From an uncultured Acidobacteriota bacterium (lineage in GTDB: Bacteria; Acidobacteriota; Vicinamibacteria; Vicinamibacterales; CAVVIG01), in contig CAVRVW010000007.1 of NCBI GenBank assembly GCA_963724695.1, positions 46,503 to 110,502 of the forward strand: a stretch of DNA of 64,000 nt, written 5' to 3'. The position numbers and the translations under genes are program-made. The first letter of the stretch is position 1. Each line of letters opens with the position of its first letter. This document shows, piece by piece, positions 6,899-61,775 of the stretch. The notes under the pieces are model-generated. The model had not been told where the DNA came from, did not search any database, and saw only the letters and a program-made list of their open reading frames with translations.

Positions 6899-7060
6899 TC
6901 CTTGGGGCTTGGTCCTTGGGCTGTCCCTGGACCTTGGCAGTCCTTCGTCCTTGGTGCGTGGACGGACTGGCGCGGTGAGCCGCTGGAACCAAGTGACAAA
7001 GTGCCAAGAACGCCAGGGACCAAGGCCCGCCCAAGGACCAGGGCCCAAGACCCAAGGACG
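6898..7060. repeat. long hairpin of tccttgg/ccaagga words
   Basis: The left arm tccttggggcttggtccttgggctgtccctggaccttgg faces ccagggaccaaggcccgcccaaggaccagggcccaagacccaagga. It belongs to the same family as 33423-33600. Confidence 0.8.
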
Positions 7061-10540: not shown

Positions 10541-10700
10541 GCTTCGGGGGCTCAGGGCTTAGGGCTCAGGGCTTACGGCTCAGGGCTCAGGGCTCCAAGA
10601 GACGCGGGAATCAGTTTAGACTTCCGTCGAGGCTCTTCACCAGCCGTCAGCCATAAGTCCTAAGTCATGAGCCGAGGCTGAGCCATGAGCCCGAGCCCTC
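10541..10700. repeat. hairpin/array of ggctcaggg words
   Basis: ggctcagggcttagggctcagggcttacggctcagggctcagggctcc faces gagccgaggctgagccatgagcccgagccc. Confidence 0.75.
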
Positions 10701-10714
10701 TGGAGACGCGCTCT

Positions 10715-12002
10715 ATGCCCTTATTGATAACGTTGAAGCTCTCCGTAAAGCTCGCCTTGCTCCTCGCCTTCTTTGTGACCGCTTCGCCGCGCGCCGAGAA
10801 CTGGCCGGCGTGGCGCGGACCGTCGGCCAACGGCCTGAGCGGCGAGATCAACCTGCCCGTCAAGTGGTCGAAGACCGAAGGCATCACGTGGCGGCTGCCG
10901 CTTGCCGGCGTGGTCCGGCTCGACGGCCATCATCTGGGGCGACCGCATCTTTCTCAACGTGGCCGAGAAGGGCGAGGACCTTCACCTGTGGTCCGTCGAT
11001 CGGAACAGCGGGAAGATGCTCTGGAAGCAGCATCTGAGCGGCGGCAACCACACCGAGCGCAAGCAGAACATGTCGTCGCCCTCGCCCGTGACCGATGGCC
11101 GGCATGTGTGGGTGATGACCGGTACCGGCTTCCTGCGCGCGTTCGACTACGCCGGCAAGGAGGTCTGGGGCCGCGACATCCAGAAGGAGTACGGCCGGTT
11201 CGGCTTGAACTGGGGCTACGCGTCTTCTCCCCTGCTGCACGGCGACGCGCTCTACGTGCAGGTCATCCACGGGATGAGGACGGACGACCCGTCGTACATC
11301 CTGAAGATCGACAAGGCCTCGGGCAAGACGCTCTGGCGCCAGGAGCGGCTGACCAAAGCCATCCGCGAATCTCCGGACTCCTACACCACGCCGGCGCTGC
11401 TCCGTTACGGGACGACCGAAGAGATCGTGATCACGGGCGGCGACGTCGTGACCGGCCACGATCCGGCGACGGGCCGCGAACTGTGGCGCGCCGATGGCTT
11501 GAACCCGCAGAACAACCCGGCGTACCGAATCGTGGCCTCGCCCTTCGTCTTCGACGGCATCGTGTACGCGCCGACGCGCGAGCGGCCCATGCTCGCCATC
11601 AAGTCCGGCGGGCGCGGCGACATCACGACCAGCCACCGGCTCTGGTCGTTCGACAGCGGCCCGGACGTGCCCACACCGGTCACCGACGGCAAGCTGCTCT
11701 ACGTCGTCCGCGACAACGGCGTGATGTTCTGTCTCGACGCGAAGACCGGCAAGCCAATCTACGGTCCGGAGCGCCTGCGCCCGGCCACCTATAGCGGGTC
11801 GCCGGTGCTCGCCGACGGGAAGATCTACGTGACCAACGAGGACGGCGTGACGATGGTCGTGCGGGCGGGCCCGAAGTTCGAGATCCTCGCCGAGAACGAC
11901 TTCGGCGAGTACACGCTCAGCTCGCCGGCGGTGTCCGAGGGCCAGATCTTCATCAGGACCGACGCGGCGCTCTACGCCATCGGGAAACGCACGAAGGGCT
12001 GA
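10715..12002 (+). CDS. secreted PQQ-like beta-propeller repeat protein, one frame break near 10905
   Basis: Signal peptide [36 protein letters not shown] (piece 10685..11794), then piece 10902..12002 with propeller blades ([47 protein letters not shown]). Confidence 0.75.
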
Positions 12003-13391: not shown

Positions 13392-13436
13392 GGCGGTCAG
13401 GCCGGAGGGCCTAGAGACCGTCGATGCTTTCGCGGC

Positions 13437-16313: not shown

Positions 16314-16334
16314 TCTGCCCCCCCTAGGAGGTCA

Positions 16335-16461
16335 CTGTACTCCAGGCTCAGGGCTCAGGGCTCAGGGCTCAGGGCTCAGGGCTCAGGCTTTCGTGTTTTC
16401 GTGTTTTCGTGGCGTCTTCGTCGTGTCTTCGTGTCTTCGTGGCCAATCTTCTTCGTGCCCT
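16335..16461. repeat. compound array: ggctcag x6 followed by cttcgtg words
   Basis: caggctcagggctcagggctcagggctcagggctcagggctcagg, then ctttcgtgttttcgtgttttcgtggcgtcttcgtcgtgtcttcgtgtcttcgtggcc. Confidence 0.85.
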
Positions 16462-17305: not shown

Positions 17306-17395
17306 GGGAACTTTGAAGTTAGAACTGAGAACTACAAAGGACAGCGTCGCGAAGCGCAGTGTCCTTCGTAGTTTTCAGTTCTCAGTTCTCAATTT
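17306..17395. terminator. long hairpin (about 35-nt arms) of gaagttagaac...gaaggaca words just after the TonB receptor stop
   Basis: gaagttagaactgagaactacaaaggacag - cgtcgcgaagcgc - agtgtccttcgtagttttcagttctcagttctcaatttc. There is no U-tract. The same 34-nt word recurs at 47862, 49579, 49889, 50595 and 51767. Confidence 0.45.
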
Positions 17396-17407
17396 CGGTG
17401 TGCGCGT

Positions 17408-23487: not shown

Positions 23488-25425
23488 ATGCCGCCCCCGC
23501 CACGGCTCGCGATCAAGCATCGACGTCGCATCATCGTCGCGGCACTGCTCCCGATCTTCATCATGGGGGTGCTCGCGCTGTACCGGCCGGCGTTTCTGAC
23601 GCGGCTCGATTCTGCCGTCTACGATGTGCTGCTTCGCGCCGCACCGGTGAACCCGCCGGGCGAGCGTGTGGTGATCGTGGACGTCGACGAGCGAAGCCTT
23701 GCGGCGGTCGGGCAGTGGCCCTGGCGGCGGACGATCGTGGGCGACCTCTTGAACCGCGTTCGCGAGCTCGGCGCCGCGACGGTGGCGCTCGACATCGTGT
23801 TCGCCGAGCCGGATCGATTCGACCAGGCTGTCGAAGGCGCGGCGCCGACGAGTCCGTCGGATGATGCGCTGGCGTCGGTTCTCAAGGGGGGACGCATCGC
23901 CCTCGGGTACGGGATGACGTTCGATCCCGCCGCCAACGTCAAGTGTGTGATGCACCCCCTCAACCTCGTCCTCGTCGAGCCGCGACCGGGGGCGGACCAG
24001 CCGTTCTTCGACGCGACCGGAGCGGTGTGCAGCCTGCCGGTGCTGTCGCAGGCCGCGGGCGCCTCGGGGTTCCTGAACGCGGCGCCGGACCTCGACGGCA
24101 TCCTGCGGCGGGCGCCGCTCTTGCTCGGTTTCAACGAGCGCATCTATCCGGCCCTCGGCCTGGTCGCCTATCTGGCCCGCACCAGGGCCGCGGACGTCAC
24201 GCTGCGCGCCGAGCACGCCAACGCCAGCATTCTGACGATCGACGGGCGGAACGTGCCGCTCGACGGGCGCAGCAACCTGCTGCTCCGCTATCGCGGCGAG
24301 AAGCGCGCGTTTCCGTACCACTCGGCGGCCGACGTGCTCGCGGGCCGCCTCGCGCCGAACGCCTTCCAGGACAAGATCGTCTTTGTCGGGACGACGGCCC
24401 TCGGCACGCGCGACGTCGTCTCGACGCCGCTCGACACGCTGTTTGCGGGTGTCGAGGTCCATGCCACGGTGGCCGACAACCTGCTCGAAGGCGATTTCGT
24501 GTGGCGCCACCAGGACGCGCCGCTCATCGAAACGGTCGTGCTCCTGGCCCTCGGCATCGCCGCGGCGCTGCTCGTCGCGTGGACCGGCCTGGCCTGGGGT
24601 ACGGTCGGTGTCGTTGTCGCGCTGACGCTCCTGTGGATCGGGGCCTTTCGGATGCTCGCCGAGAGCGGGGCGTTCTGGTCGCCGCTGCTGCCGACGACTG
24701 GATTGACGCTCTCGCTCGCCGCGATGACGGTGGCGCGTTTTACCGTCGAGCGCGTGCGCGCGGAGCAGGCCGGTCAGCAACGAAGCGACGCGCAGCGGCT
24801 GATGGTGCAGGCCCTGCTGTCGCTCACCGAGGTCCGCGACGCGGAGACGGGCCGGCATTCGCGCCGCACCCAACGCTACACGCGTGTGCTCGCCGGCCAG
24901 CTGTCGTCGAACCCGGCCTATCAGGCGTACCTGACACCGGCGAGGGTCGAGCTGATGGCCAGCCTCGCGCCGCTGCACGACATCGGCAAAGTCGGCGTCC
25001 CGGATGCCCTCCTCAACAAGAAAGGCGACTTGACGCCGGAGGAGATGGCCGAGATGCGCCGGCACCCGATTTACGGGCGCGATGTCATCCTCAACGCCGA
25101 GAAGCGCACCGGCATCAGGGACGATGAGACGCTGGAGCTCGCCAAAGAGATCGTCTACACACACCACGAGAAGTGGGATGGCGGCGGATATCCCCAGGGG
25201 CTCCGGGGCGAAGCCATACCCGTCGCCGGCCGCGTCCTGGCCATCGTCGACGTCTACGACGCGGTGCTGACCCGCACGCTGTACCGCAACCCGATGACCC
25301 ACGACCAGGCGGTCACGTTCATCAGCAAGGGCCGCGGCACACACTTCGATCCCGCGGTGGTCGACGCCTTCGTCCAGGTCGAACGGACGTTCAAGGAAGT
25401 GTCTACGGAGGAAGCGCGGGGGTAG
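23488..25425 (+). CDS. CHASE2 sensor domain - HD-GYP phosphodiesterase
   Basis: CHASE2-type N-terminus VVIVDVDERSLAAVGQWPWRRTIVGDLLNRVRELGAATVALDIVFAEPD, followed by TM helices, then HDIGKVGVPDALLNKKG...HHEKWDGGGYPQGL. Confidence 0.85.
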   Translation: MPPPPRLAIKHRRRIIVAALLPIFIMGVLALYRPAFLTRLDSAVYDVLLRAAPVNPPGERVVIVDVDERSLAAVGQWPWRRTIVGDLLNRVRELGAATVALDIVFAEPDRFDQAVEGAAPTSPSDDALASVLKGGRIALGYGMTFDPAANVKCVMHPLNLVLVEPRPGADQPFFDATGAVCSLPVLSQAAGASGFLNAAPDLDGILRRAPLLLGFNERIYPALGLVAYLARTRAADVTLRAEHANASILTIDGRNVPLDGRSNLLLRYRGEKRAFPYHSAADVLAGRLAPNAFQDKIVFVGTTALGTRDVVSTPLDTLFAGVEVHATVADNLLEGDFVWRHQDAPLIETVVLLALGIAAALLVAWTGLAWGTVGVVVALTLLWIGAFRMLAESGAFWSPLLPTTGLTLSLAAMTVARFTVERVRAEQAGQQRSDAQRLMVQALLSLTEVRDAETGRHSRRTQRYTRVLAGQLSSNPAYQAYLTPARVELMASLAPLHDIGKVGVPDALLNKKGDLTPEEMAEMRRHPIYGRDVILNAEKRTGIRDDETLELAKEIVYTHHEKWDGGGYPQGLRGEAIPVAGRVLAIVDVYDAVLTRTLYRNPMTHDQAVTFISKGRGTHFDPAVVDAFVQVERTFKEVSTEEARG

Positions 25426-25544
25426 ATCGGGGATCGGGGATCGGGGATCGGGGATCGCTGTTCTCCGTTCCGCTTTCTCCGTTCCCAGTTCCCTGTTCCC
25501 TGTTCCCCGTTCCCGTGTTCCCCGATCCCCGATCCCCGATCCCT
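25426..25544. repeat. clean long hairpin: ggggatc x4 arms enclosing ctgttcc words
   Basis: atcggggatcggggatcggggatcggggatcg ... cgatccccgatccccgatccc. The interior is ctgttctccgttcc...ccctgttccctgttcc, the complement of the gaacagg array at 29840-29945. Confidence 0.85.
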
Positions 25545-29801: not shown

Positions 29802-29839
29802 GCCATCTCTCCTCGAGAAGCTCTTCGGCGAATTCTACC

Positions 29840-29945
29840 CGAACAGGGAACAGAGAACAGGGAACTGGGATCGGGGAACAGGGAACAGGGAACAGGGAAC
29901 AGGGAACAGAGAACAGAGAACAGGGAACGGGGATCAGGGAACGGA
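29840..29945. repeat. tandem array of gaacagg words with gggatcgggg interruptions
   Basis: gaacagggaacagagaacagggaactgggatcggggaacagggaacagggaacagggaacagggaacagagaacagagaacagggaacggggatcagggaacgg. It is a one-sided array, the complement of the interior of the 25426-25544 hairpin. Confidence 0.85.
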
Positions 29946-32108
29946 CTGCACGACGGGTCGGCCGGCGCGGTAGAGCGCCAACCGGGCGCGAATCTCTCCG
30001 ACAAGGACCGGCGCTGAGCCGCTGGCGAGCTTTTCTGCGGCTTCGGCTGACGCCACGGCCTCCTGAAACCGTCCGGCGGACGCATACGCCGCGGCGAGCG
30101 AGTCGAGCACCGAAGCGTCCTTTCTTCCAGACAGTTCCGCGGCCCGGGATGCGAGAGCAATCGCCTCATCAGGATTCCTGGCGGCGGCATCGGGATGCGT
30201 GGCCAGCAGCCACGAGAGCTGCGCCATGGCATCGGTCCAGTCGGGACGCGCGACGAGCGCGCTCCTCAACTGCGCGATCGCCTCCGAATACCGATGAAGC
30301 CCGGCGAGCACACGGGCGAGGTTGTAGCGGGCTTCCGGGAACGACGGGCTGATCTGCACCGCGCGCTCGAGGGGCGCGACCGCGTCGGCGAGCCGGCCCG
30401 CGGCAATCTCGGCCACGCCGAGGTTGTAGTGAGGCGAGAGCTCCGTCGGGTCGAGTCGAGTGGCCTCGCGCAAGTGAACGATTGCCTCGTCGACACGTCC
30501 CTGGCTCAGCACGATCTCGCCCACACGGGCGTGCGCGCGTGCGTGCGACGGGTCGAGCCTGAGCGCCTCCCGATACTCCGCCGTCGCCCCGCCCACGTCC
30601 CCTGACGCCTGAAGCGCCGAACCGAGGTTGAACCGCGCTGCCGCGGACCGCGGTTCGAGCCGCACGACCTGCGCGAAGTGCGCGGCCGCCTTCTGCGGCT
30701 GACCGGTCCGGATGTAGAGGACGGCGGCGTCGTTCCTGATCGCCGCGTAGTCCGGGCGCACGGCGATCTGCGTCTCGAGGCCGACGATGGATTCGGCGGT
30801 CATCTTGCGGTCGGTTTCGCCGAAGAGCCGCACGCGATCGGCGTCCGTGCGCGCGAGCAGCTGCACCCAGACGTCGCCCATTTCGTCAGACGATCGGAAC
30901 CCCCACACGACGCGCCTGGGCGGCATGTCCGGGTTGTGCGGGTTGTCGGCGGAGTTGTCGTAGACGTACTCGAGGTGGAGGGCTGTGCCCGCGGGCAGCC
31001 AGAAGGGCTGCGCGTATCGGTACTGGTCCTGCCATTTGAAGTCCCACTGTCGAACGAGGATCAGCCACCGTCTGCTCCCGTCGGGAAGGTCCGCCCATGC
31101 GCGAACCTCACGCGCGCGCAGGTGCGCGTGCGGCTGAACGGCTTGCACTTCGGCGTCCACCGGCAGGGTGAACGAGTCGGAAACGACGTAGGCCTTATCG
31201 CCAGGCGGGATGTCGATGCTCTGGCGGCCCAGCCGCAGCATGACCGGCGTGCGCGTCGGCGGTTCGTTCGTGAAGAAGAGACCGATCGACGGGCGGATCC
31301 GTTCCGGCTTTCCGGTGGCCTGCAGATGCAGTTGCACGAGCAGCGACGAGCCGTTCTCGAGGCGCCAGGAAAGTCCGGCAGGGGCCAGCGGCGGCGCCTG
31401 GCCAGGCGTCCAGCCCAGGAAGTGCCCGTCGGGGAACATCGCCGAGTTCGGGATGAGGCCCGAGTACCCCGCCAGGGGATCCTCATCGTCCAGCCGCCGG
31501 GAGGCTGCCGTCCGGTCCACGAAGATGTTGGCGTGGTGCACGTTGGTGTTGCCCGGCAGGAACTCGAGGCCGCGGACGTACCGCGTGGCAGCCCCCGGCG
31601 CAGCGGGAACATCGACGACGAAGTTGCGGTAGAGATCGGTTTCGCCGGAGGCGGGCACGGTGTATTCGGGAAGCGTGAGCACGAGGTCAGGCTGACCGAC
31701 CTGCCAGCCTGCCGACCAGGTGGGCGCCGGCGGCAGGCGCGAGCGATCGCCTTCGCGCGCCCCGGAGGTGACCCAGCGCTCGATGATCGAGATCTCCTCG
31801 TCGGTGAGGCGGCGCTCGCCGGCGAACTCGCCGTAGCCGGGCTCGGGCCGCCAGGGCGGCATGTAGCGGCTCTTCGTCACGGCGGCGATCTGCCGCGCGC
31901 GAGCGGAGGCTTCCGCGTACGTCACGAGGCTGAAGGGCGCCGATCCGCCGGGGCGGTGGCAGCCGGCGCAGCGCGCGAAGACGATCGGCGCGACGTCGTG
32001 GGAGAAGGTCGATCTCAAGCGGCGTCTGCGCCCCCAACAAGTGCCGGCCAGAACGAGCAGCGAGAAGCGCCAGGCGGCCGGCCATTCGCCAACTGTAGCG
32101 CGGGCCAC
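29934..32108 (-). CDS. PHM/DBH-like copper type II monooxygenase domain protein with N-terminal CxxCH block and C-terminal TPR repeats
   Basis: The track ORF 29934..33152 is trimmed to GTG 32108 (VARATVGEWPAAWRFSLLVLAGTCWG). N-terminal block APIVFARCAGCHRPGGSAPFSL...MPPW. His/Met pattern VHHANIF, LHLQ, QPHAHLRA and SSDEMGDVW, spaced like the CuH/CuM sites of peptidylglycine alpha-hydroxylating monooxygenase. About 8 TPR-like repeats follow. The exact start is uncertain. Confidence 0.7.
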   Translation of the reverse strand: MARATVGEWPAAWRFSLLVLAGTCWGRRRRLRSTFSHDVAPIVFARCAGCHRPGGSAPFSLVTYAEASARARQIAAVTKSRYMPPWRPEPGYGEFAGERRLTDEEISIIERWVTSGAREGDRSRLPPAPTWSAGWQVGQPDLVLTLPEYTVPASGETDLYRNFVVDVPAAPGAATRYVRGLEFLPGNTNVHHANIFVDRTAASRRLDDEDPLAGYSGLIPNSAMFPDGHFLGWTPGQAPPLAPAGLSWRLENGSSLLVQLHLQATGKPERIRPSIGLFFTNEPPTRTPVMLRLGRQSIDIPPGDKAYVVSDSFTLPVDAEVQAVQPHAHLRAREVRAWADLPDGSRRWLILVRQWDFKWQDQYRYAQPFWLPAGTALHLEYVYDNSADNPHNPDMPPRRVVWGFRSSDEMGDVWVQLLARTDADRVRLFGETDRKMTAESIVGLETQIAVRPDYAAIRNDAAVLYIRTGQPQKAAAHFAQVVRLEPRSAAARFNLGSALQASGDVGGATAEYREALRLDPSHARAHARVGEIVLSQGRVDEAIVHLREATRLDPTELSPHYNLGVAEIAAGRLADAVAPLERAVQISPSFPEARYNLARVLAGLHRYSEAIAQLRSALVARPDWTDAMAQLSWLLATHPDAAARNPDEAIALASRAAELSGRKDASVLDSLAAAYASAGRFQEAVASAEAAEKLASGSAPVLVGEIRARLALYRAGRPVVQSVP

Positions 32109-33422: not shown

Positions 33423-33600
33423 ATAGTCCTTGGGGCTTGGTTCCTGGTCCTTGGGCGGTCCTTGGTCCCTGGCTGTCCTGAGTCCTTTGTCCCTGGTTCG
33501 CGCCAAGGACGAAGGACCAAGACAACCAAGGACGAAGACGAGCCCAGGGACCAAGACCGAAGGCCCGCCCAAGGACTAAGACCCAAGAACCCAGGCCTTG
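33423..33600. repeat. long hairpin of tccttgg/ccaagga words (same family as 6898-7060)
   Basis: tccttggggcttggttcctggtccttgggcggtccttggtccctgg ... ccaaggacgaaggaccaagacaaccaaggacgaagacgagcccagggaccaagaccgaaggcccgcccaaggactaagacccaagaaccc. Confidence 0.8.
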
Positions 33601-37580: not shown

Positions 37581-39735
37581 TTAGAAGCTGACCCCCGCGC
37601 GGACGCCGAAGGTCCTCGGCGCGCCGTTCTCCCCCACGAACCCTGACGGCGCCAGGCCTGGATAGGCGAACGCCAGCGGGATGTACTTCGTGTCGAACGC
37701 GTTCCGCAGCCACGCCTCGGCGAACAGCTGCCGCCCGCGCACGCCCGCGCGGAAGTTCGACAGCGAGTACGCGTCCTGCTGCTCGGTGTTCGCATCGTCG
37801 TAGTACATGCCGCCCTTGAAGGAGATGTCGGCCCGGCCGTAGACGTTCAGGCTCGAGCTCACGGCGACGGTGTACTGGCCGCCGAAGTCAGCGGTGTAGT
37901 TCGGCGTGTTCGAGAGCCTGTTTCCGGCGACCGGCACGCCTCCCGACAGGCTGTCGTCGCCGAACGTCGCGTTGGCATAGCCGAGGCCCGCGAAGAAGTC
38001 GCAGCCCGGGGCCAGCCGAGCGTTCATCTCGAGCTCGATGCCCGTGCTCGCGGCGCCGGCCGCGTTCGAGATGTAGAACTGGCCGGGCACGAACGGGTCC
38101 GGCAGGTTCACCTGCATGTCGCTCCAGTCCAGGTGGTAGAAGGTCGCGTTCATCGACATGCGGCGGTCGAACATGAGCGTCTTGACGCCGCCCTCGTAGT
38201 TCCAGGAGTGCTCTTCGCCGTACGCCTCGCTGCCCGCTGGCGACGCCGGGTTGAACCCGCCCGCCTTGAAGCCCTTGGCCGCCGTCGCGTACAGCGTATG
38301 GTCGGACGAAAGGCGGTAGGCGGCGCTGAACTGCGGCGACACGTCGTTGAAGTCGTCTTCGGCGATCACGATCGTCGGCGGCGCGATGGCCGGCGTAAAG
38401 GACGTCAGCAGGTTCGCTTCCTTGTGCTCGAAGTCTCCCCGGAGCGCCACCGTCGCATCGAACCTCGGACCGAAACCCGACCGTGGTCTCGCCGTACAGC
38501 CCGAACCCGCGATCGTCGAGCTCCGCCTGGGGCGACAGCTGGCTCACCGGAAAACCGACGAACTGCGACAGCACGAACGGCGAGTAGCTGTTGACCGCCT
38601 CCTGATCGTAGGCCTGCGTGAAGAACGAGCCGCCGGCCTGCCACTTCAGCGTCATCGTGTCGGAGAGCGACACGCGGCGCGCCTTCGCCGAGGCTACGCG
38701 CACTTCCTGGGTGAACTGGAAGTCCTGCTCGTTGTTGACACGCGTCGCCAGCGGGTACGGCGAATAGTCGAGGTCCGTCGCGTCCTCGGTCTCCCACGAC
38801 ACGAAGCCCGTCGTGGCCGTCAGGTCGATGCCGGAGCCGGTACGGCTCAGCAGCAACGTCGGGGCGACGATGTCACGGTTGGTGTAGCCCTCGTAGTCGC
38901 GCGCGGCGTGAAGTGGATTCGCCCGCAGCGCATCGAGATCGTTGAGCGCGTAGTCGCCATCCCTGGCGCGCTCGGTGGTGACAATCGCGCGGGCCTCCCA
39001 GTTGGACGCCGGCGTCCAGAGCAGTTGTGTCTTGCTGAAGAGGGCCGACCGCGAGTCGAGATCGTTGCCCGTCATGTCGTTGACCGTGAAGCCGTCGCGC
39101 GACGAGTGGCCCAGGGAGAAGCCCAGCGCCAGCTTGTCGGCCACGACAGGGCCGGAGACCGACCCGCGGACGTCCGCCGTGCCGAAGTTGCCGAACGGCC
39201 CGGACACCGCGCCGTGCCAGCCCTGGAGCGACGGCCGGCTGCTCGTGATGTTGATGAGGCCGCCAAGCGTGTTCCGTGCCGAAGAGCGCGCTCTGGGGTC
39301 CGCGCACGAACTCGATCTGGTCGACGTCCGTCAGCTCGATGCTCGACGAGTTGGCGTTCAGCTGCGGCACGCCGTCGATGTACGTCGTCACGCCCGGGTT
39401 GGCCGGGCTCGAGCCCGACGCCGCGGAACCTGGCGTTGCTCAGCTTGCGGGCCGAGAACTCGTTGAAGAACACGTTCGGCGCGTAGTCGCCCGCCTCGCT
39501 CACCGACCGCAGGTTGGCATCGCTCGATGAGTGCCCTCGGCACGACGGTCACGCGACCGGCGCCACCTGCACGTTCTCGGCCTCCTTCTGCGCGGTGACG
39601 GTCAACGTCGGCAGCTGGATTCTTAGCGTCCCATCCGGGTTGGTCTGCGTCTGACTCTGCGACTGTCCGGAGACGACCGGGCGGAAGCACCAGCGCCACC
39701 GCGACAACAAGGATGGGTATGCGGATGTTCGTCAT
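37581..39735 (-). pseudogene. TonB-dependent receptor, frame broken several times
   Basis: Start MTNIRIPILVVAVALVL (ATG at 39735). Plug TTYIDGVPQLNANSSSIELTDVDQIEFVRGPQSALFG (38873..39391). Barrel pieces are 37888..39207 and 37581..38450, ending GAPRTFGVRAGVSF-stop. Confidence 0.75.
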
Positions 39736-45301: not shown

Positions 45302-46533
45302 ATGCCGTCCTCCTCCCCAGAAGTCGTTCAGCCGTTCGAGTTTGTGCCCCGTACGCGGGTCGTCTTCGGGTCCGGAGCGTTCTCGAAGCTCGGCGATCTG
45401 GCCGCCGAGCTGGGCTTCACCCGAACGCTCCTCGTGGCCGACCCCGGACTGGTCGCGGCCGGCTACGTCAGCCGCGCCGAGGGCCTGCTGACCGAGGCCG
45501 GGATCGCCGCCTTCGGCTTTCACGACTTCGACGCCAATCCCGACAGCCGCATGGTCGAGGCTGGACGCCTCGTCGCCTCCTCCAGCCAGGTCGACTCCAT
45601 CGTCGCTCTCGGCGGCGGCAGCTCGCTCGACTGCGCGAAGGGGATCAACTTCCTGCTGACCGGCGGCGGCACGATGCGCGACTACCGGGGCTTCGGCAAG
45701 GCGAGGCGGCCGATGCTGCCGTCGATCGGCATCCCGACCACGGCCGGCACCGGCAGCGAGGCGCAGAGCTACGCGATCATCTCCGACGCCGAGACCCACG
45801 CGAAGATGGCCTGCGGCGATCCGGGCGCGGCGTTCAAGGTCGCCATCCTGGATCCGCAGCTGACGACGACCGCGCCGTCGGGTGTGACGGCGATCGCCGG
45901 CTACGACGCGCTGTCGCACGCCGTCGAGGCGTACGTGACGACGAAGCGCAATCGCGTCTCCGCTCTCTTCGCGGCGACGCCTGGCGGCTGCTGGCGTCGA
46001 ACTTCACCCGGGTTCTCGAGGCGCCGGACGACGAAGCGGCTCGCGGCGCGATGCTCCTCGGATCGCACGAGGCAGGGATCGCCATCGAGCAGTCGATGCT
46101 CGGCGCAACACATGCGCTCGCCAATCCGCTCACCGCGATGCACGGCACCATCCACGGCGTGGCCATCGCCGTGATGCTGCCGCACGTGGTGCGGTGGAAC
46201 GGCGACGTCGTCGGGGAGCAGTACGCGGAACTGCTGCGCGCCGTGGGAGACGACCTGGCCACACCGGTCACGGCTGGTGCACGGCTGGCGGACCGTCTCT
46301 GGACGCTCGCGCGGCTCGGCGGCCTGCCCTCGACGCTCGGCGAGATCGGCGTCTCGCTCGCCGAGCTGCCGGCGCTCGCGGCCGACGCGGCCACGCAGTG
46401 GACGGGGACGTTCAATCCGCGGCCGTTTGGAGTTCAGGACGCCCTGGAGCTATATGGAAGGGCGATTCGAACTCACCACGGTTCAAGGTTCAAGGTTCAA
46501 GGTCCAGGGTGCTGGTTGAACCCTGAACCTTGA
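45302..46533 (+). CDS. iron-containing alcohol dehydrogenase, one frame break near 45960-45975
   Basis: Pieces 45302..46174 (GGGSSLDCAKGINFLL, IPTTAGTGSEAQSYA, GYDALSHAVEAY) and 46051..46533 (GATHALANPLTAMHGTIHGVAIAVMLPHVV). The last ~20 codons are read from the ggttcaagg hairpin. Confidence 0.8.
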
Positions 46534-46537
46534 ACCG
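46479..46537. repeat. hairpin of ggttcaa words overlapping the ADH 3' end
   Basis: cggttcaaggttcaaggttcaaggtccaggg - tgct - ggttgaaccctgaaccttgaaccg. Confidence 0.85.
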
Positions 46538-46549
46538 CAAGGATCATGA

Positions 46550-47854
46550 ATGACTGACGTCGTCGTCATCGGCGGCGGCCCGGCGGGGTCGACCGCTTCG
46601 ACGCTGATCGCGCAGCACGGGCATTCCGTGACGCTCTTCGAGCGCGAGCACTTTCCGCGCTTCCATATCGGCGAATCGCTCATCCCCGAGACCTACTGGG
46701 TGCTCAAGCGGCTGAACATGCTGCCGAAGATGCAGCAGAGCCACTTCGTGAAGAAGCACAGCGTGCAGTTCGTCAACGCGCAGGGCAAGCTGTCGGCGCC
46801 GTTCTACTTCTGGGACAACAAGCCGCACGAGTGCTCGCAGACCTGGCAGGTGGTGCGGAGCGAGTTCGACCAGATGATGCTCGACAACGCGCGCGAGCAC
46901 GGCGTCGACGTCCACGAAGGCGTGCGCGTCGTCGACGTGCTGTTCGACGGCGATCAGGCGAACGGCGTCGCGATCCAGAACGACGGGCGGCGCGAGGACC
47001 GAGGTCCGCTGCAAGGTCGTCGTCGACGCCAGCGGCCAGAACGGCCTGCTGCAGAACCGCTTCAGGCTGCGCGTCTGGGATCCGATCCTCAACAAGGGCG
47101 CGATCTGGACGTACTGGAAGGGCGCGTACCGCGACACCGGCCGCGACGAAGGCGCGACGATGGTGCTGCAGACCACCAACAAGAAAGGGTGGTTCTGGTA
47201 CATCCCGCTGCACGACGACCTGGTCAGCGTCGGCATCGTGTCGCCCTTCGACTATCTGTTCAAGGGCCGCGGCGACCAGGAGCAGACCTACCAGGAAGAG
47301 GTCGCGCGGTGCCCTGCCGTCACCGATCGCGTCTCGAAGGCGACGCGCGCGACCGGGTATTTCGCCACGAAGGACTACTCGTACCGGGCGACGAAGGTCG
47401 CCGGCGACGGGTGGGTGCTCGTCGGCGACGCGTTCGGCTTTCTCGATCCGCTCTACTCGTCCGGCGTGCTGCTCGCGCTCAAGTCCGGCGAGCTGGCCGC
47501 CGACGCGATCGTCGAGGGCTTCCAGAAGAGCGACCTCTCGGCCGCCCAGCTCGGGAACTGGGGTCCGGCGTTCAACGACGGCGTGGACCGCATGCGCCGC
47601 CTGGTCTGCGAGTACTACGACGGCTTCAGCTTCGGCAACTTCGTCCGCAACTACCCGCGACCTGCAGGGCACCGTCACCGATCTGCTGATCGGCGATCTC
47701 TTCAACGAGCGCGTCGACAAGGTGTGGCCGCCGATGGAGTCGCTCTACCCGCCGGACAAGCGGGCGATTCCGAGGTGGAACGCCGGCACGCCGCCGGAGA
47801 TTGCCGAGAACAAGGTCAACGAACTGTTCTCTGCCCGATGGCGCAAAGCCCTGA
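46550..47854 (+). pseudogene. FAD-dependent oxidoreductase (geranylgeranyl reductase / flavin halogenase-like fold), three frame breaks
   Basis: VVVIGGGPAGSTAS dinucleotide motif (piece 46550..47689). The middle is in the frame of 47160..47873 (VVVDASGQNGLL..., GDGWVLVGDAFGFLDPLYSSGV). The tail DLQGTVTDLLIGDLFNERVDKVWPPMESLYPPDKRAIPRWNAG is in the frame of 46831..48411. Comparison with the duplicate at 49441 places the true end at LPDGAKP-stop (TGA 47852-47854). Confidence 0.75.
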
Positions 47855-47905
47855 GGGCAAACTTCGAAGTTAGAAGTGAGAACGACGAAGGACACTGCTG
47901 GCGAG

Positions 47906-48152
47906 CGGGGCGAGGCCTGCCGGCTGCCGCCGGACGGCGTCGTGCGCCGGGAAGATGGCCGTTGCTCGTACCCTCTTCAGTTTCCACGGCGACTAAGGGG
48001 TCAACCTGCCGAGGGCCACTCACGGCATGCACCGACATGGCTTTCGCGAGCGCCACGGATCGCGGAGGCCGAAGTCGCCGTGCGGAATCGCGACGGCCAT
48101 CTTCCGGTCACGGAGCGCGTCGGCGCACGACGACGCCGGCGTCATCCGGCAC
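47906..48152 (+). repeat. structured non-coding element, copy 1 (candidate ncRNA or MITE-like element)
   Basis: The termini pair (ggggcgagg...cctcgcccc). Internal helices are ccgggaagatggccgt/acggccatcttccgg and cacggcgact/agtcgccgtg. The invariant core ggccactcacggcatgcaccgaca is shared with copies 2 and 3. Confidence 0.6.
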
Positions 48153-48358
48153 GCCTCGCCCCGATCGAAGAGGCCTCACGCAGCCGTCAGTCGAGTCCGA
48201 AAGAACTGGAGTACCCAGCGGTCTACTACCAGGTGTTGCACCAACCGTAAGTGTCATTGATGCTAACGACATAGCCAAGAAGGAAGCTGTAACCGGTAAG
48301 TCCCTGCGCAAACTTAAAGCTAGTTGGTACGCAACCGGGCAGGCTCCTGCACAGATAC

Positions 48359-48691
48359 TTGGAGAGCAAGAACATGTTGCCCGAAGGCTGGGTTCAGCCT
48401 GCCGTCCCTAGTCTCTACTGGATTCCTCTCAGTATAACGATGCTGATGGGGGCACCGTTCGGATTGCTCGGCGGAGCGGCGGCCAGGCGCTTCCTCAAGC
48501 CCGCGGACTCTCGGCGTTGGTCGCGCACTGGGGCCGTGGTCGAGATGGCTCTCAGCGGAGCGTGGTGGTCATTCTCCGCGATATTGCCTTCGTGGGGGTT
48601 TCCACCGACTCTAGTACGAAGCCTTATCGGTGCGGTGCTCATAGCGGCTCTCTGTGAATGCTGTATTGCCTTCGGTCGCAAAGTAGTCTGA
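48359..48691 (+). CDS. small membrane protein, hypothetical, in lower-GC islet
   Basis: 110-aa ORF with three hydrophobic segments (LYWIPLSITMLMGAPFGLLGGAA; VVEMALSGAWWSFSAILP; LIGAVLIAALCECCIAF). The surrounding DNA is visibly less GC-rich than the rest of the window. Confidence 0.45.
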   Translation: MESKNMLPEGWVQPAVPSLYWIPLSITMLMGAPFGLLGGAAARRFLKPADSRRWSRTGAVVEMALSGAWWSFSAILPSWGFPPTLVRSLIGAVLIAALCECCIAFGRKVV

Positions 48692-48867
48692 CTTAGCTCA
48701 GGGTTGTTCTCCGATCTCAGGCTTGGACTCCGTAAAGAAGGTCTCGAGGCGGTGCGTTACCCGTGCCAAAGCCGTTACCGAGCCCCAACACGACGGGGCC
48801 CATGCCCTAGATGTTTAGTCCCATGGTGTGGTGGTGAGACGATTGGCCTCACCGCCAAGGAGACGCT

Positions 48868-49440
48868 ATGGGCCAGGTACTCCACGGAAGCGCCACGACG
48901 ACTCACGCCGTCCGAGCAGCGGTACAGCGATCGAAGGCTTCGCTCCAGGCGCTGAGCGAGCGGCACGGAATCAATCCAAAGACCGTCGCCAAATGGCGGA
49001 GGCGCGTCAGTCCTGAAGACTGCCGAATGGGGCCAAGGGTGCCGCACTCGACGGTGCTGTCGGCTGAGGAGGAGACCCTCATCGTCGCGTTTCGTCGACA
49101 GACACTGTTGCCTCTCGATGATTGCCTCTACGCCCTGCAAGCGACCGTCCCACACCTGACCCGGTCCTCCCTGCACCGCCTGTTTCAGCGCCAGGGCATC
49201 AGCCGCCTGCCGAATGCCGAGGGCACGCGCGTGCGTCGGAAGTTCAACAACTATCCGATCGGGTACATCCACATCGATCTCGCGGAGGTCTGGACGGACG
49301 AAGGCAAGCTCTATCTCTTCGTCGCCATCGATCGCGTGAGCAAATTCGCCTTCGCGGAATTACACGCACGAGCGACCCCTCGGATTGCGGCGGACTTCCT
49401 GCGTCGGCTGATCGAGCATGTCCCGTGCACGATCCACACG
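48868..49440 (+). mobile_element. IS481-family transposase, N-terminal remnant (about 190 aa), truncated after ...VPCTIHTV
   Basis: MGQVLHGSATTTHAVRAAVQRSKASLQALSERHGINPKTVAKWRRR...TLLPLDDCLYALQATVPHLTRSSLHRLFQRQGISRLP...YPIGYIHIDLAEVWTDEGKLYLFVAIDRVSKFAFAELHARATPRIAADFL matches the conserved N-terminal half of IS481-type DDE transposases. AAGGAG lies upstream of the ATG. The expected LTDNG...DDE continuation is missing, and the ORF instead reads into a duplicated host-gene segment. Confidence 0.8.
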
Positions 49441-49632
49441 GTCTGGCCGCCGATGGAGTCGCTTTACCCGCCGGACAAGCGGGCGATTCCGAGTTGGAAC
49501 GCTGGCACTCCTCAGGCGATCGCAGAGAACAAGGTCAACGAACTGTTTCTGCCTGAGGGCGTAAAACCTTGAGGGGAACTTCGAAGTTAAAACTTAGAAC
49601 TACGAAGGACACCGTTGGCGACCGGGGCGAGG
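49441..49632 (+). repeat. diverged direct duplicate of 47722..47915 (3' end of the FAD-oxidoreductase gene, its terminator word and the edge of the structured element)
   Basis: gtctggccgccgatggagtcgctttacccgccggacaagcgggcgattccgag...gagaacaaggtcaacgaactgtt aligns base for base with 47722 onward, with scattered substitutions. It encodes VWPPMESLYPPDKRAIPSWNAGTPQAIAENKVNELFLPEGVKP-stop in frame with the transposase remnant. Confidence 0.85.
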
Positions 49633-49872
49633 GGGGCGGATGAGCGGCGTCGTCGTGCGCGACGCACTCCGTCAACGGAAGGTGGCCGGCGCGATTCCTC
49701 ACGGCGACTTCGCTGTCCGCGATCCGTGGCCGTGGCGTCAGCTGTGTCGGTGCATGCCGTGAGTGGCCGTCGACGGATTAGCCCGTAGTCGCCGTGGCAG
49801 CGGCAGGACACGAGCGACGGACAGCTTCCCGGCGCACGACGCCGACGGCGGCAGACGGCACCCCTCGGCCCG
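49623..49872 (-). repeat. structured non-coding element, copy 2 (inverted relative to copies 1 and 3)
   Basis: The reverse complement carries the core ggccactcacggcatgcaccgaca, ggatcgcgga, gaagtcgccgtgaggaatcgcg and the pairing cacggcgact/agtcgccgtg. It is flanked on both sides by direct copies of the 34-nt word cttcgaagt.agaacttagaact.cgaaggacac (49579, 49889). Confidence 0.6.
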
Positions 49873-49931
49873 AACGCCCTCACGGGACCTTCGAAGTCAG
49901 AACTTAGAACTGCGAAGGACACTGACTGCGA

Positions 49932-50594
49932 TCACCACCCCGCCCCATGGTCATACGTGGACTTGTTGCCGGGATGGATTGAGAACTGCCCGTAGCAGAG
50001 CTTGCGGAGAATCGACGCCGGTCGCAGGTGCCAGCTCGCCCAACTGAGGGGCGTGTCTCCGTTCATGTCCTTCGCCTCCCGATCGGCGCCCGCGCCCAGG
50101 AGTAGATCGACGGCCCTCTCGGTGCCGAACGCCGCAGCCCGATGCAGCGGCGTTTCGCCCTTCGTCCGGACGTCGCGCATGAAGCCACCCGTCTCGACCC
50201 CTGTCCTCGTCGCGCTGTTTGGATTCGCGCCACCCGCGAGCAGGATCTCGACGACGTGGTCGTAGATGGGCCGGTTGGCCTTGCAGAGCGCCGTGTGGAG
50301 CGGCGTCTCTCCGGTGTCGGGCATCGGGTGGTTGACGTCGGCGCCGCGCTCGACGAGGAACTGGCACAGCTGCCAGTGTCCATGGAACGCCGCGCCGTTC
50401 AGGTCGAGGTTCTCGCCGAGCGAGGCGAGCGACTCGCCGTTCGCGAGGAGATACCGGATCGCGCTCACATCGCCGTAGTACGCACACCACTCGATGAGTC
50501 GCGTGCCATGCTCATCCGCCGAAGTTGCCGCATGCCCCTGGGCGACGTGGTCGAAAACCAGGTCGGTCCGTCCGTCCCGTATTCGCTGCAGCAT
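49932..50594 (-). CDS. ankyrin repeat protein
   Basis: 220-aa intact ORF with ankyrin repeats, for example GETPLHTALCKANRPIYDHVVEILLAGGANPN, GETPLHRAAAFGTERAVDLLLGAGADREAKDMNGDTPLSWA. Confidence 0.85.
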   Translation of the reverse strand: MLQRIRDGRTDLVFDHVAQGHAATSADEHGTRLIEWCAYYGDVSAIRYLLANGESLASLGENLDLNGAAFHGHWQLCQFLVERGADVNHPMPDTGETPLHTALCKANRPIYDHVVEILLAGGANPNSATRTGVETGGFMRDVRTKGETPLHRAAAFGTERAVDLLLGAGADREAKDMNGDTPLSWASWHLRPASILRKLCYGQFSIHPGNKSTYDHGAGW

Positions 50595-50636
50595 CTCTGT
50601 CCTTCTTACTTCTCACTTCCAAGTTCGAACTTCCCG

Positions 50637-51437
50637 CTAGAGTCCGCTAGGGCCAAAGCGGGTTCCAGCCGGCATCTTCAGGCCGAAGTACTCCTCGAGC
50701 ACGCGGAGCAGCTCCTCTGCGGAGGCGATCCGGCGCACGTCGCTCGACCCATCAGCCTTGCGGATCGTGAGCTCGTTGTTGAGCAGCGTGTACCGACGGC
50801 CATCCGGCACCGCCAGCGCTGCGACGAGCCGGTTCTTGAAGTGCGACTCCGGGTGCGCGCTGGTGTACCAGTTGGCGAGCACGCGATCGATCTGGCGGCA
50901 TCTCCTCGAGGGTGAACTCGTTGATGTCGGACCATTCCTGGCCGAAGCGGACCTGGTGGTAGAGCAAGCCGCCCTCGCGGACGATCGGCGGGTGTCGTGC
51001 GGGGTCGCCTGCGGCTCGACGGTATTCAGGCGGATCGCCGAGGTGAGCGAGAGCCCGCCGATCCCCACATCCGCGAGCCAGGACTCGCCGTCGATCTCGA
51101 CGCGGAGGAAGAGGTGCGTCCGCGCCGGCGTCACGCTGCGCGGCTGCTGCCAGCGCACCCTGGCGCTGATCGGCACGGCCTTGAAGCCGAGCGCCTCGAG
51201 CACGAGCAGGAGCAGCCCGTTCTGCTCGAAGCAATACCCGCCCCGCCGCTGGCGCACGAGCTTGTCGAAGAGCGACGCCGGATCGAGCGCAATCGGCCGC
51301 TCGAGCAGCACGTCCAGGTTCTCGAACGGAATCGAGCTCGTGTGCGCGAGCGAGATGGCGTTCAGGACGTCCAGCGTCGGCTCACGCGGGCCCTGGTATC
51401 CGATGCGTTCGAAGTAGCCGTCCAGATCGATGCTCAT
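50637..51437 (-). pseudogene. arylamine N-acetyltransferase, two compensating frame breaks in the middle
   Basis: MSIDLDGYFERIGYQGPREPTLDVLNAISLAHTSSIPFENLDVL and the catalytic-Cys block RRGGYCFEQNGLL. The central segment IVREGGLLYHQVRFGQEWSDINEFTLEEM lies in the frame of 50752..51234. The C-terminus ANWYTSAHPESHFKNRLVAALAVPDGRRYTLLNNELTI is back in the first frame. Confidence 0.8.
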
Positions 51438-51474
51438 TCAGTCCTCGAAACACGCTGCGGATCAAAGCGACCTT

Positions 51475-51736
51475 GCGACGGGACGGGAGAGGCCGGCTCC
51501 GGCGTCGGCGTCCTGCGCCGGGAAGCTGGCCGTCGCTCGTACTCTATCGGTCACGCGGCGACTATCGGGCTCATCCATCGCGGGCCACTCACGGCATGCA
51601 CCGACACGGGTTACCCACGCGTTCTGGATCGCGGAGAACGAAGTCGCCGCGCGGAATCGCGACGCCCACCTTCCGGTCACGGAGTGAGTCGGCACGAGGA
51701 CGACTCCACCGGAGCCGACCTCTCCCGTCCCGTCGC
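51475..51736 (+). repeat. structured non-coding element, copy 3
   Basis: The terminal pairing differs in sequence from copy 1 but is still complementary (gggacgggagagg...cctctcccgtccc). The internal helix cgcggcgact/agtcgccgcg shows a double compensatory change relative to copies 1 and 2. The core is the same. Confidence 0.6.
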
Positions 51737-51794
51737 AACTGACTTCGGGCTCCCCGTGAGGGTGCAGTGTCCTTCGTAGTTCTCACTTCTAAGT

Positions 51795-53298
51795 TCAAAC
51801 TTCCCTGAAGAGCCACGTCCATTCGAAGGGATCGAGATCCACCTGCGATGCCGAGCGCCTCGATGTCGACTGATTGAGTCGTCGATCCCAGGTTGGCCAG
51901 CACCAGTATCTCCTCGTGCTCGTGCTGCCTGGTGAGCGCAAGGATACGCGGGTTGCCAGCGTCGATGAACGCGACCGAACCGCGCCCGAACGCGGGATGT
52001 TGACGCCGCGTGGCGATCATCCGCTTGATCACTGACAGCAACGACTCCGCGCCGTCGCCCCTGTCAGCAATGTCCAGGACCGGCCGAAGCTCCTGTCGTT
52101 CAACGTCCTGCCATCGCATCGGCAGCCGCAGGCCATCCCGATCCGGCAGCCCGATATCGTCGCCCATGCCAAGCTCGTCGCCGTAGTAGATGACGGGCGA
52201 GCCTGGCAGCGAGAAGAGCAGCGCGAACGCGAGCTCCACGCGCGCGAGATTGCGGCCCAGGAGCGGCGAGAGCCGGCGCCGCACGCCGCTGATGAGCCGC
52301 ATGCCCGGCTCAGGCCCGTACTCGTCGAGAAGCTGCTCGAGATCCGGGTCCTCGACGCTGGAGAACGACAGCTCGTCGTGGTTCCGGAGGAAGGTCGCCC
52401 ATTGCGCGCCGGCGGGCAGATTCGACGCGGCCGTGACCACCTCCACAATCGGGCGCGCATCCTGACGGGCGAGCGCCAGGAACAGCCGGTGCACCAGGGG
52501 GAAGTGGAACGCCATCTGGCACTCGTCGCCGTCGCCGAAGTACGACCGGATGACGTCGAGCGGCTGGTTGGCTTCCGCGATGAGGATCCGATCCTCGTAG
52601 GCCTCGTCGATCGCTGCCCTGAGCCGCTTGATGAACGCATGCGTCTCCGGAAGGTTGTCGCAGGCCGTGCCCTCGCGCTCGAAGAGATGCGGGATCGCGT
52701 CGAGCCGCAGGCCGTCCACACCCAGATCGAGCCAGAAGCGCATGACGTCGAGCACGGCGTCCTGTACGCGCGGGTTGTCGAAATTCAGATCCGGCTGGTG
52801 GCTGAAGAAGCGGTGCCAGTAGAACGCACGGGCCTCGGGGTCCCAGGTCCAGTTGCTGGTCTCGGCGTGATGAAAGATCACGCGCGCATCCGGATAGCGG
52901 TCGGCGGTCTCGCTCCACACGTAGAAGTCGCGCTCGGCCGAGCCGGCCGGCGCGCGGCGTGCGGCCTGAAACCACTGGTGCTCGTCGGAGGTGTGGTTGA
53001 TCACCAGTTCGGTGATCACTTTGATGCCGCGCTCGTGGGCCGCCGCGACGAAGCGCCGGCAGTCTTCGAGCGTGCCATAGCGCCGGTTCACGACGCGATA
53101 GTCCGCGATGTCGTATCCGCCGTCCCTGAGCGGCGAGTCGTAGAACGGCAGGAGCCACACGCACGTCACGCCCAGCAGCTCGAGGTAGCCGAGCTTCTCG
53201 ATGAGTCCCCGAAAGTCGCCCACACCGTCACCATCGCTGTCGTGGAAGGTGCCCACGTGGAGCGAATAGATGACCGCGTCCTTGTACCAGTCGCTCAC
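51795..53298 (-). CDS. treS: trehalose synthase (maltose alpha-D-glucosyltransferase), probable frame break near 51850
   Basis: WYKDAVIYSLHVGTFHDSDGDGVGDFRGL, LLPFYDSPLRDGGYDIADY, YWHRFFSHQPDLNFDNP, DGLRLDAIPHLFEREGT, ECQMAFHFPL, FLRNHDEL and SLPGSPVIYYGDELGMGD. As written the ORF runs on to 51589 through the repeat element. A shifted frame gives a TreS-like end VDLDPFEWTWLFREV-stop at 51795. Confidence 0.85.
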
Positions 53299-61514: not shown

Positions 61515-61775
61515 GGGGCAATTGTACTGGCTCTGGGCTCCGGGCTTCAGGCTCCAGGGCCTGCGGGCTCGGGCTTCTGGCTACGGGCTCAGGGCTTACG
61601 GCTCAACACCTCACTAAGTGTTGACGGAGTCTGGAAGCTCGCCGCAGAAGATCTCGGCAGACGGAGTACCAGAGCCGGCGAATGGTAATTGCCTGGAGGC
61701 TAGAGGCTAGAGGCTGGAGGCTAGAGCCTGAAGGCCGAAGCCCCTGAAGCCCGAAGCCTGGAGCCCGAAGCCCGT
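61515..61775. repeat. large hairpin of gggctc/gaagcc words enclosing a ~90-nt unique core
   Basis: ggctctgggctccgggcttcaggctccagggcctgcgggctcgggcttctggctacgggctcagggcttacggctc ... ggaggctagaggctagaggctggaggctagagcctgaaggccgaagcccctgaagcccgaagcctggagcccgaagccc. Confidence 0.8.
61658..61672 (-). promoter_or_regulatory. sigma54-type -24/-12 promoter-like element upstream of the PspA/AAA+ operon
   Basis: The minus strand reads TGGTACtccgtCTGC, with GG and GC at the canonical spacing of TGGCACG-N4-TTGC. It sits in the unique core of the 61515-61775 hairpin, about 150 nt upstream of ATG 61507. A competing sigma70-like TACAAT lies at 61521-61526 (minus strand), 13 nt from the ATG. Confidence 0.25.

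Follow-up and report, generated by a model that had tools for sequence, protein, structure and literature searches.

Dispersed, covarying hairpin elements with an invariant core in Vicinamibacteria-type Acidobacteriota

We analyzed a stretch of 64,000 nucleotides (nt) from an uncultured Acidobacteriota bacterium (contig CAVRVW010000007.1 of GenBank assembly GCA_963724695.1, positions 46,503 to 110,502 of the forward strand; hereafter the window), in which three copies of a noncoding hairpin element lie among genes for a Trp-halogenase-like protein, an ankyrin protein, an N-acetyltransferase, and a TreS-like alpha-amylase (table 1). A preliminary description of the window, made from its letters alone, had recognized the three copies by an invariant core, and direct reading, repeat finding, and a count of the core all confirm them at their places: the 24-nt core GGCCACTCACGGCATGCACCGACA occurs exactly three times in the window, with none expected from 100 shuffles even when three mismatches are allowed. 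By repeat finding, copies 1 and 3 share 80% identity over 138 nt, copy 1 and the inverted copy 2 share 82% over 125 nt, and copies 2 and 3 share 86% over 66 nt. On the strand along which the element was first described (hereafter the reference strand, plus for copies 1 and 3), the predicted fold of copies 1 and 3 is a long rod (−172 kcal/mol and z −8.95 for copy 1, −156 kcal/mol and z −6.66 for copy 3), and copy 2 keeps the inner part with a decayed outer stem (z −1.08). The copies are members of an undescribed family of dispersed noncoding hairpin elements of 250–350 nt, uncatalogued in Rfam and found in Vicinamibacteria-type Acidobacteriota.

Described along the reference strand, the whole element is a rod of 250–350 nt with an outer stem that varies in length and sequence. 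Inside it, helix P-a (CCGGGAAG.../...CUUCCGG in subtype A, GGAACUGUGCGC/GCGCACAGUU in subtype B) closes a conserved domain of 162–170 nt in all members save L003 and L013, two loci in which hairpins are inserted. These insertions are tolerated in the conserved asymmetric internal loop (about 14 nt vs. 4 nt, with a conserved UCGUACNCU on its 5′ side) that separates P-a from the 10-bp helix P-b. The apical domain of ∼80 nt comprises CCA.TCRCGGCATGCACC, a 20-nt variable stretch, CACGGATC-RY-GG, and then 9 nt to P-b, with a fixed spacing of 23 nt between the invariant blocks CCA.TCRCGGCATGCACC and CACGGATC. The core and second block are invariant across metagenome-assembled genomes (MAGs) from soil, lake, and sea, and the stems fall to about 55–60% identity.

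The element could not be assigned to any RNA family in the preliminary description, and database searches agree. Rfam 15 cmscan of the whole window gave no match at the gathering threshold, and at E ≤ 10 the window region and loci L001–L003 gave only 19-nt fragments or chance matches that lie outside the elements. A search with the exact 20-mer core was negative in the GTDB species set and in IMG/VR viral contigs, a relaxed pattern has only three matches in viral contigs, all of them chance and coding, and blastn against plasmids and phages returned no match. The exact 20-mer does match three soil metagenome contigs that are only ∼64% identical overall to the window copies and that retain the core, the second block GGATCRYGG, and the helices, the latter through double changes; RNAalifold of these six sequences places compensatory changes in 27 of 60 pairs. 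Because the spacing between the blocks is the same in all six, genomes were scanned with the spaced pattern GGCATGCACC-N22-24-GGATCNNGG-N8-10-TCG. Among 78 matches, 17 have the rest of the core, all in Acidobacteriota MAGs and several per genome (two Vicinamibacteria MAGs, ZH-3nov15-179, casp150-mb.205, three Microflora Danica bins, MAG_Dt_03); the remainder, in Streptomyces and elsewhere, arise by chance or from coding sequence. A covariance model (CM), R1, built from 20 sequences detects 29 copies at 52–169 bits, in the window (3), the three soil contigs, and nine Acidobacteriota/Vicinamibacteria MAGs, with at most six copies per MAG. R1 has no match in 471 kb of chance pattern-matched loci or in 79 kb of other Vicinamibacterales contigs (∼550 kb in all), and is therefore specific to a family that is patchy in its distribution. 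The neighboring TreS-like gene has homologs named as Vicinamibacterales, which assigns the window to this group. A literature search found no description of this element family.

The apparent double changes among the three copies had been read in the preliminary description as a sign of selection on secondary structure. Every compensatory change that it quoted is present in the three-way alignment, and the argument is considerably stronger with 20–29 homologs, tested in a MAFFT alignment that was fitted to no structure, against shuffled controls and against partners slid by 1–3 columns. Across P-a and P-b, 95% of cells are paired versus 75% in shuffles, and the covariation score of 0.514 (0.161 shuffled) is reached by none of 500 shuffles, with the slid controls at or below 0.063. 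Individual pairs show counts such as CG:9 UA:7 GC:4, UA:13 CG:7, and GC:15 CG:5. The concern that the compensatory changes would lose statistical support with more copies is thus not realized; the extra copies support them. The family has two general marks of a structured RNA, compensatory pairs beyond those due to relatedness and conserved unpaired nucleotides, and since the conserved parts are asymmetric and unpaired, they cannot be explained by arm-to-arm conversion of a DNA palindrome. Variable ends, covarying stems, and an interior of constant length that carries invariant unpaired blocks form the pattern of a folded functional single strand and not of termini recognized by a transposase.

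The strand on which the element was first described does not appear to be the strand that folds. Of 27 elements, 26 fold better as the complement, with a mean advantage of 13.5 kcal/mol, and the complement accommodates 209 G-U pairs versus 115 on the reference strand (p 7e-5). A cleaner sign than fold energies or G-U counts comes from the second block, GGATC-RY-GG, whose sole variable dinucleotide takes the forms GC, GU, and AC. These forms keep a 4-bp hairpin, C[G/A][C/U]G-AUC-CGUG, on the complement only (pair counts GU:14 AU:5 and CG:13 UG:4 UA:1) and produce A-C mismatches on the reference strand. A CGGU-GCAU-GCCG hairpin on the complement, with an invariant U-G, behaves in the same way. 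On the strength of these predicted folds, the complement of the reference strand is probably the folding strand.

Table 1. Hairpin elements, their parts, and adjoining features in the window (reference, strand of the preliminary description).
Feature	Position	Strand	Remarks
Copy 1, whole hairpin, subtype A	47902..48167	probable folding strand −; reference +	inverted arms, minimum free energy (MFE) rod, CM match
Copy 1 inverted arms	47902-47933 / 48136-48167		repeat finding
Copy 1 CM match	47942-48108		153 bits
Copy 1 conserved domain	47947..48107	none assigned	covariation of P-a and P-b
Copy 1 helix P-a	47947-47962 / 48093-48107
Copy 1 conserved 5′ internal loop	47963-47974
Copy 1 helix P-b	47985-47994 / 48073-48082
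Copy 1 invariant core	48014-48037	+
Copy 1 second invariant block CACGGATCGCGGA	48054-48066
Copy 2, subtype A	49615..49880	probable folding strand +; reference −	opposite orientation to copies 1 and 3
Copy 2 core	49745-49768	−
Copy 2 helix P-b	49787-49796 / 49700-49709
Copy 2 helix P-a	49814-49832 / 49676-49692
Copy 2 CM match	49674-49837	−	146 bits
Copy 3, subtype A	51473..51738	probable folding strand −; reference +	CM match, 150 bits
Copy 3 inverted arms	51473-51514 / 51697-51738		88% complementary
Copy 3 core	51583-51606	+
Copy 3 helix P-a	51518-51536 / 51659-51676
Copy 3 helix P-b	51554-51563 / 51642-51651
Copy 3 second block	51623-51635
Lower-GC filler between copies 1 and 2, lineage specific	48170..49432		outside the element; absent from relative L085
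Small open reading frame (ORF) in filler, 110 aa	48359-48691		no Pfam match; absent from L085; membrane protein in the preliminary description
Truncated IS481-type (rve) transposase	48868-49430		helix-turn-helix and partial rve; in-frame fusion to duplicated halogenase 3′ end
Heptamer word beside copy 1	47863..47895	+	halogenase stop codon (TAG) inside the corresponding word of L085
Heptamer word left of copy 2	49577..49612	+	within duplicated segment 49433-49632
Heptamer word right of copy 2	49887..49924	+	separates copy 2 from the ankyrin gene end
Heptamer word beside copy 3	51767..51805	−	TreS-like amylase stop codon (TGA) inside the corresponding word of L085

The elements are noncoding and without a tie to any gene family. 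The preliminary description had noted that no reading frame is conserved across the copies, and this holds throughout, given indels, early stops, and a lack of protein homologs. That the elements encode a small protein, with conservation at the amino-acid level, is a reading to which we give practically no weight: ORFs of 77–124 aa overlap each window copy, and most copies have several frames open over the 165-nt domain, which is uninformative at 67% GC. Against it stand single-nucleotide indels beside the invariant core and between the subtypes, an ATG-anchored frame that stops after 5–6 codons in copy 2, L001, and L002 (three of the six sequences read), Arg-rich junk as the translation, and base-pair covariation that accounts for the substitutions; the ORF translation through copy 3 has no homolog among 5.8 billion proteins. 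All copies are intergenic. The 114 ORFs flanking elements in 21 loci include no recurrent family, and the neighbors scanned against Pfam belong to ordinary metabolism and regulation (PhoD, M19 dipeptidase, SDR, AraC, methyltransferases, DNA polymerase III delta′, and others). We rejected a cis-regulatory leader or 3′ untranslated region of one gene class, as the neighbors are unrelated and single copies lie in mixed orientation to them (9 vs. 6).

It is very unlikely that the elements are only passive GC-rich palindromes, serving as bidirectional terminators or 3′-end stabilizers with an invariant core that reflects shared ancestry and no specific function. The hairpins are indeed very stable, the genome has other hairpin-forming intergenic words, and many of the copies are placed downstream of a gene or between convergent genes, the latter being the position of the doublets of L002 and L030. 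However, several are found upstream of a gene or antisense inside an operon, the rods are not followed by a U-tract, the block spacing is fixed, and the core and second block have remained unchanged while the stems diverged to the extent given above.

In their distribution the elements behave as dispersed repeats, with several copies per genome, at nonhomologous sites, and presence or absence between relatives. In MFD06742, one 1.9-Mb contig has three copies that are 95–99% identical over ∼260 nt and have unrelated flanks, the homology stopping at the base of the hairpin; in one of these copies a nested hairpin of 44 nt is inserted into the outer stem. The two subtypes, A and B, are often adjacent and inverted. 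All five doublets (L002, L011, L030, L034, L039) have the same relative orientation, tail-to-tail on the reference strand and hence divergent on the complement, with abutting rods and 110–131 nt between the conserved domains, and four of the five pair a subtype-A with a subtype-B unit. Partner remnants are kept in L027 and L066. No target-site duplication was seen around L064 and L075. A second hairpin repeat of ∼45 nt (TTCGACTTCGCTCAG.CGCCCCGAGCYTGTCGAGGGGCGC) occurs in one MAG, at about 5600–5650 of L025 and about 7250–7300 in the right flank of L075; the L025 copy lies inside the outer stem of the element, so palindromic repeats are nested there. In L021 the rod is lengthened by ∼100 nt of further palindrome per side.

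Two relatives record the recent history of the window locus. L085, which has a 97%-identical TreS-like protein and the same gene order, carries a single element between the ankyrin and halogenase genes (13430–13690), orthologous to copy 2 and a mosaic of window copies 1 and 2. The window additionally has copy 1, the small ORF, the truncated transposase of IS481 type, and a 190-nt duplication that comprises the halogenase 3′ end and its adjoining short repeat (the heptamer word described below). At the copy-3 site, with flanks nearly identical to those of the window, L085 has a palindromized element composed of the 5′ arm, the core, and the reverse complement of the 5′ arm. This near-perfect palindrome (11540–11860) is centered on GCATGCACCGCGTCGGTGCATGC and matched by the CM on both strands, and it is the product either of hairpin-driven template switching or of an assembly artifact. 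In L086, an 80%-identical relative, the amylase and N-acetyltransferase genes overlap without word or element, representing an empty copy-3 site; comparison of filled (window, L085) and empty sites shows no clear target duplication and only a weak similarity of 8–9 nt. From L085 and L086 we conclude that the elements come, go, invert, and rearrange on short time scales. The core stays constant across the family despite this short-term rearrangement.

[quoted passage not shown] It is possible, if tentative, that the present elements likewise function as single-stranded or cruciform DNA, with the core as the recognition site of a trans-encoded recombinase or transposase (e.g., Y1/RAYT-type) or of a nucleoid protein, and with any transcripts incidental. 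Such a reading would accommodate dispersed and strictly intergenic copies, often between convergent genes, near-identical copies that end at the hairpin base, the empty site in L086, inversion and palindromization in relatives, other small palindromic repeats lying within or around the elements, doublets whose two subtypes are inverted as the Y and Z types are in BIMEs, a strand asymmetry compatible with G-T pairs in a DNA hairpin, and a lack of detected promoters or terminators. In contrast, the termini of the elements are their least conserved and the interior their most conserved part, the reverse of terminal inverted repeats (TIRs) recognized by a transposase. No clear target-site duplication is visible, the elements are 6–10 times the size of a REP, and a 165-nt domain of constant length with an asymmetric conserved loop is typical of folded RNAs. 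Nor was a transposase, RAYT, or reverse transcriptase found beside the 21 loci or in the window, save the unrelated IS481 fragment; this check covered the 114 flanking ORFs and ∼40 ORFs scanned against Pfam. The preliminary description had considered that the element might be the end of a larger insertion sequence (IS) or MITE, and neither a parent IS nor canonical, conserved TIRs or target-site duplications were found to indicate this.

The same description had left the choice between a structured RNA, an unusual MITE, and a DNA hairpin, and this breadth was justified: the elements are distributed as dispersed repeats and conserved as structured RNAs. We put at roughly 50% the probability that they are transcribed structured RNAs with a trans-acting partner, which expand in the manner of mobile elements. 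We predict that the element acts as a folded single strand, most likely transcribed from the complement of the reference strand, in which the rod would confer stability and the conserved apical domain would serve to bind the trans-acting partner, probably a protein. Mobile-element-like expansion within genomes would then give rise to dispersed copies, inverted doublets of the two subtypes, inversions, and losses.

Several observations weigh against such a transcribed RNA. A consensus scan beside the copies, uninformative in itself, found no sigma-70-type promoter and no intrinsic terminator, and since the rods of doublets abut, RNAs made from the complement would start back-to-back with no room for a promoter outside the rods. 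No convincing helix was found in the apical domain by RNAalifold on both strands, MFE folding of each sequence, or an all-pairs scan, save the two short hairpins on the complement. The reference strand is C-rich (36.5% C vs. 32.6% G), which partly confounds the strand test, and of the three window copies only copies 2 and 3 have z-scores that favor the complement (complement vs. reference: copy 3, −10.41 vs. −6.66; copy 2, −1.91 vs. −1.08; copy 1, −7.99 vs. −8.95). DNA hairpins tolerate G-T wobble as well, and the strand asymmetry is therefore no less compatible with single-stranded DNA. Finally, the orthologous elements in L085 are far more diverged than their flanks, and this excess divergence, together with the palindromization, points to hairpin dynamics at the DNA level.

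A bolder version of the RNA reading, which we consider distinctly unlikely, holds that the apical domain is the catalytic or ribonucleoprotein core of a new, Vicinamibacteria-specific class of large structured RNA that multiplies through its own fold. Copying would proceed by reverse transcription of the rod RNA, in the manner of a bacterial short interspersed element or retroviroid, or would be templated by the hairpin. Copying through the folded form would account for the conservation of the interior rather than the ends and for homology that stops exactly at the base of the rod.

The three copies had been thought to bracket a lower-GC islet, a view that the comparison with relatives does not sustain: lower GC (57–60%) is limited to 48.1–49.6 kb, and the ankyrin and N-acetyltransferase genes are native and syntenic in relatives, so the copies do not bracket an island. 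The duplicated halogenase 3′ end at 49433–49547 is 90% identical to 47714–47828, and the longer segment 49433–49632 is likewise 90% identical to 47714–47915. The transposase–halogenase fusion ORF (48868–49572), with its junction at about 49430, marks a local event of duplication and deletion. The Trp-halogenase-like gene itself (46550–47873) is split over three frames (46550–47689, 46831–48411, and 47160–47873), and the TreS-like alpha-amylase (51589–53298) differs from that of L085 by a 1-nt insertion near 51846, so that its ORF runs through the word into copy 3. The split halogenase and the frameshifted amylase are either pseudogenes or products of indel errors in a long-read assembly. Other fragmented-looking genes in the window are pieces of a TonB receptor and an outer-membrane protein (17994–18464 and 37581–38450).

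Each copy had also been reported to sit next to a 34-nt “terminator word.” The adjacency is real, and the label is not supported, as no terminator-type signal was found. The word is a heptamer-periodic intergenic repeat of 7-nt units (GAAGTTA GAACTTA GAACTAC GAAGGAC) that carries the stop codons of neighboring genes, and its TAG and TGA triplets, 7 nt apart, fall in different frames. It also occurs without an element, at 17309–17400, where a hairpin is formed by two words that enclose no element, and at 50598–50632, where the word fills the 43-nt gap from the N-acetyltransferase stop to the ankyrin start and ends in AAGGA before the ATG. Intergenic tandem arrays of other 7–8-nt units (GGGCTCA, GGGAACA, TCGTGYTT, CCAAGGA, GGTTCAA) lie at 10537–10609, 16326–16444, 25411–25514, 29827–29956, 6891–7059, 33425–33598, 61529–61765, and 46479–46537, several of them inverted against each other in pairs, an arrangement that would give hairpins. 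Short-period repeats seem to be a general feature of the intergenic DNA of this genome. Elsewhere in the window, at 605–1993, are two adjacent ORFs with Effector-associated domains (EAD7; EAD1 and EAD7), domains usually found in conflict or NTPase-type signaling systems.

We present the family as multicopy structured intergenic elements, a kind that is already known, and compared it with several such systems. Among the small RNAs and DNA sites considered, 6S, SRP (signal recognition particle), and Y RNA, retrons, attC, sso, and dif/IMEX were set aside because of the lack of an Rfam match, the multicopy nature of the elements, or missing defining boxes or neighbors. A CsrA-type sponge, which would present GGA motifs, was also rejected, with only one ANGGA invariant and that on the less favored strand. 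Integron attC sites are 57–141 nt long, with R/L boxes (GTTRRRY) at their ends and a variable center, and stand in one orientation in arrays beside an integrase. The present elements resemble them as imperfect palindromes that would act as folded single strands, with strand selectivity and with structure conserved more than sequence, but they are 250–350 nt long, lack such end boxes, and occur in mixed orientations with no integrase.

MITEs such as ERIC, Correia/NEMIS, and RUP are 100–300 nt long with inverted arms, are cotranscribed with their neighbors, and fold as long RNA hairpins. MITEs have conserved termini and target-site duplications, and their copies within a genome are usually very similar. 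Like these, the present elements are noncoding repeats with inverted arms and insertion polymorphism between relatives. Unlike these, their termini are the most variable part, no clear duplication is seen, the interior is conserved across distant MAGs, and there are no conserved TIRs matching a parent IS; the only IS in the window, the IS481-type fragment, shares no sequence with the element.

REP/BIME repeats are also close in behavior. Y- and Z-type REPs pair in inverted orientation in BIMEs. Like REP/BIME repeats, the present family consists of GC-rich intergenic palindromes, often between convergent genes, with inverted pairs of two subtypes, dispersal through the core genome, and long persistence (for REP/BIME/REPIN and MITEs, see PMC3184786). 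REPs are imperfect palindromes of 20–40 bp that are tagged at one end by a conserved GTAG or CGTC (PMC3733652). In contrast, the present elements of 250–350 nt have an asymmetric invariant interior, unlike ends, and no shared tag, and no RAYT was identified among the 114 flanking ORFs (21 loci) or the ∼40 Pfam-scanned ORFs.

On our best reading, the closest precedent found is the TwoAYGGAY RNA (RF01731) of Pseudomonas. TwoAYGGAY RNAs are multicopy, with 68% of doublets divergent, are flanked by short repeats, and are described as expanding in a mobile-element-like way; a protein-binding role has been proposed for them (bioRxiv 10.64898/2026.09.22.753630). Both families are structured, noncoding, intergenic, and dispersed, with a copy number that varies between genomes, and in both, inverted doublets are frequent, short tandem repeats flank the elements, and expansion resembles that of mobile elements. 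The CACGGATC block of the present element even holds one ACGGAU on the reference strand, fitting AYGGAY. However, the present family has no cmscan match to RF01731 even at E ≤ 10, belongs to another phylum, has only one conserved AYGGAY-like hexamer, on the less well folding strand, and consists of one long rod with an 80-nt apical domain, whereas TwoAYGGAY has two AYGGAY-looped hairpins on a basal stem.

The finding matters because the Acidobacteriota, notably the Vicinamibacteria, are abundant in soil and have almost no described noncoding RNA biology. The family is well defined, with a working CM, ∼30 members, strong covariation, and no Rfam entry, and the model lets annotators mask elements through which gene calls run in the window and its relatives. 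It combines the conservation of a structured RNA with the spread of a mobile repeat, two properties usually studied apart, and TwoAYGGAY provides a second, independent example of this combination. Together, the two families would make it testable whether some bacterial “repeats” are self-propagating functional RNAs, and which protein reads them.

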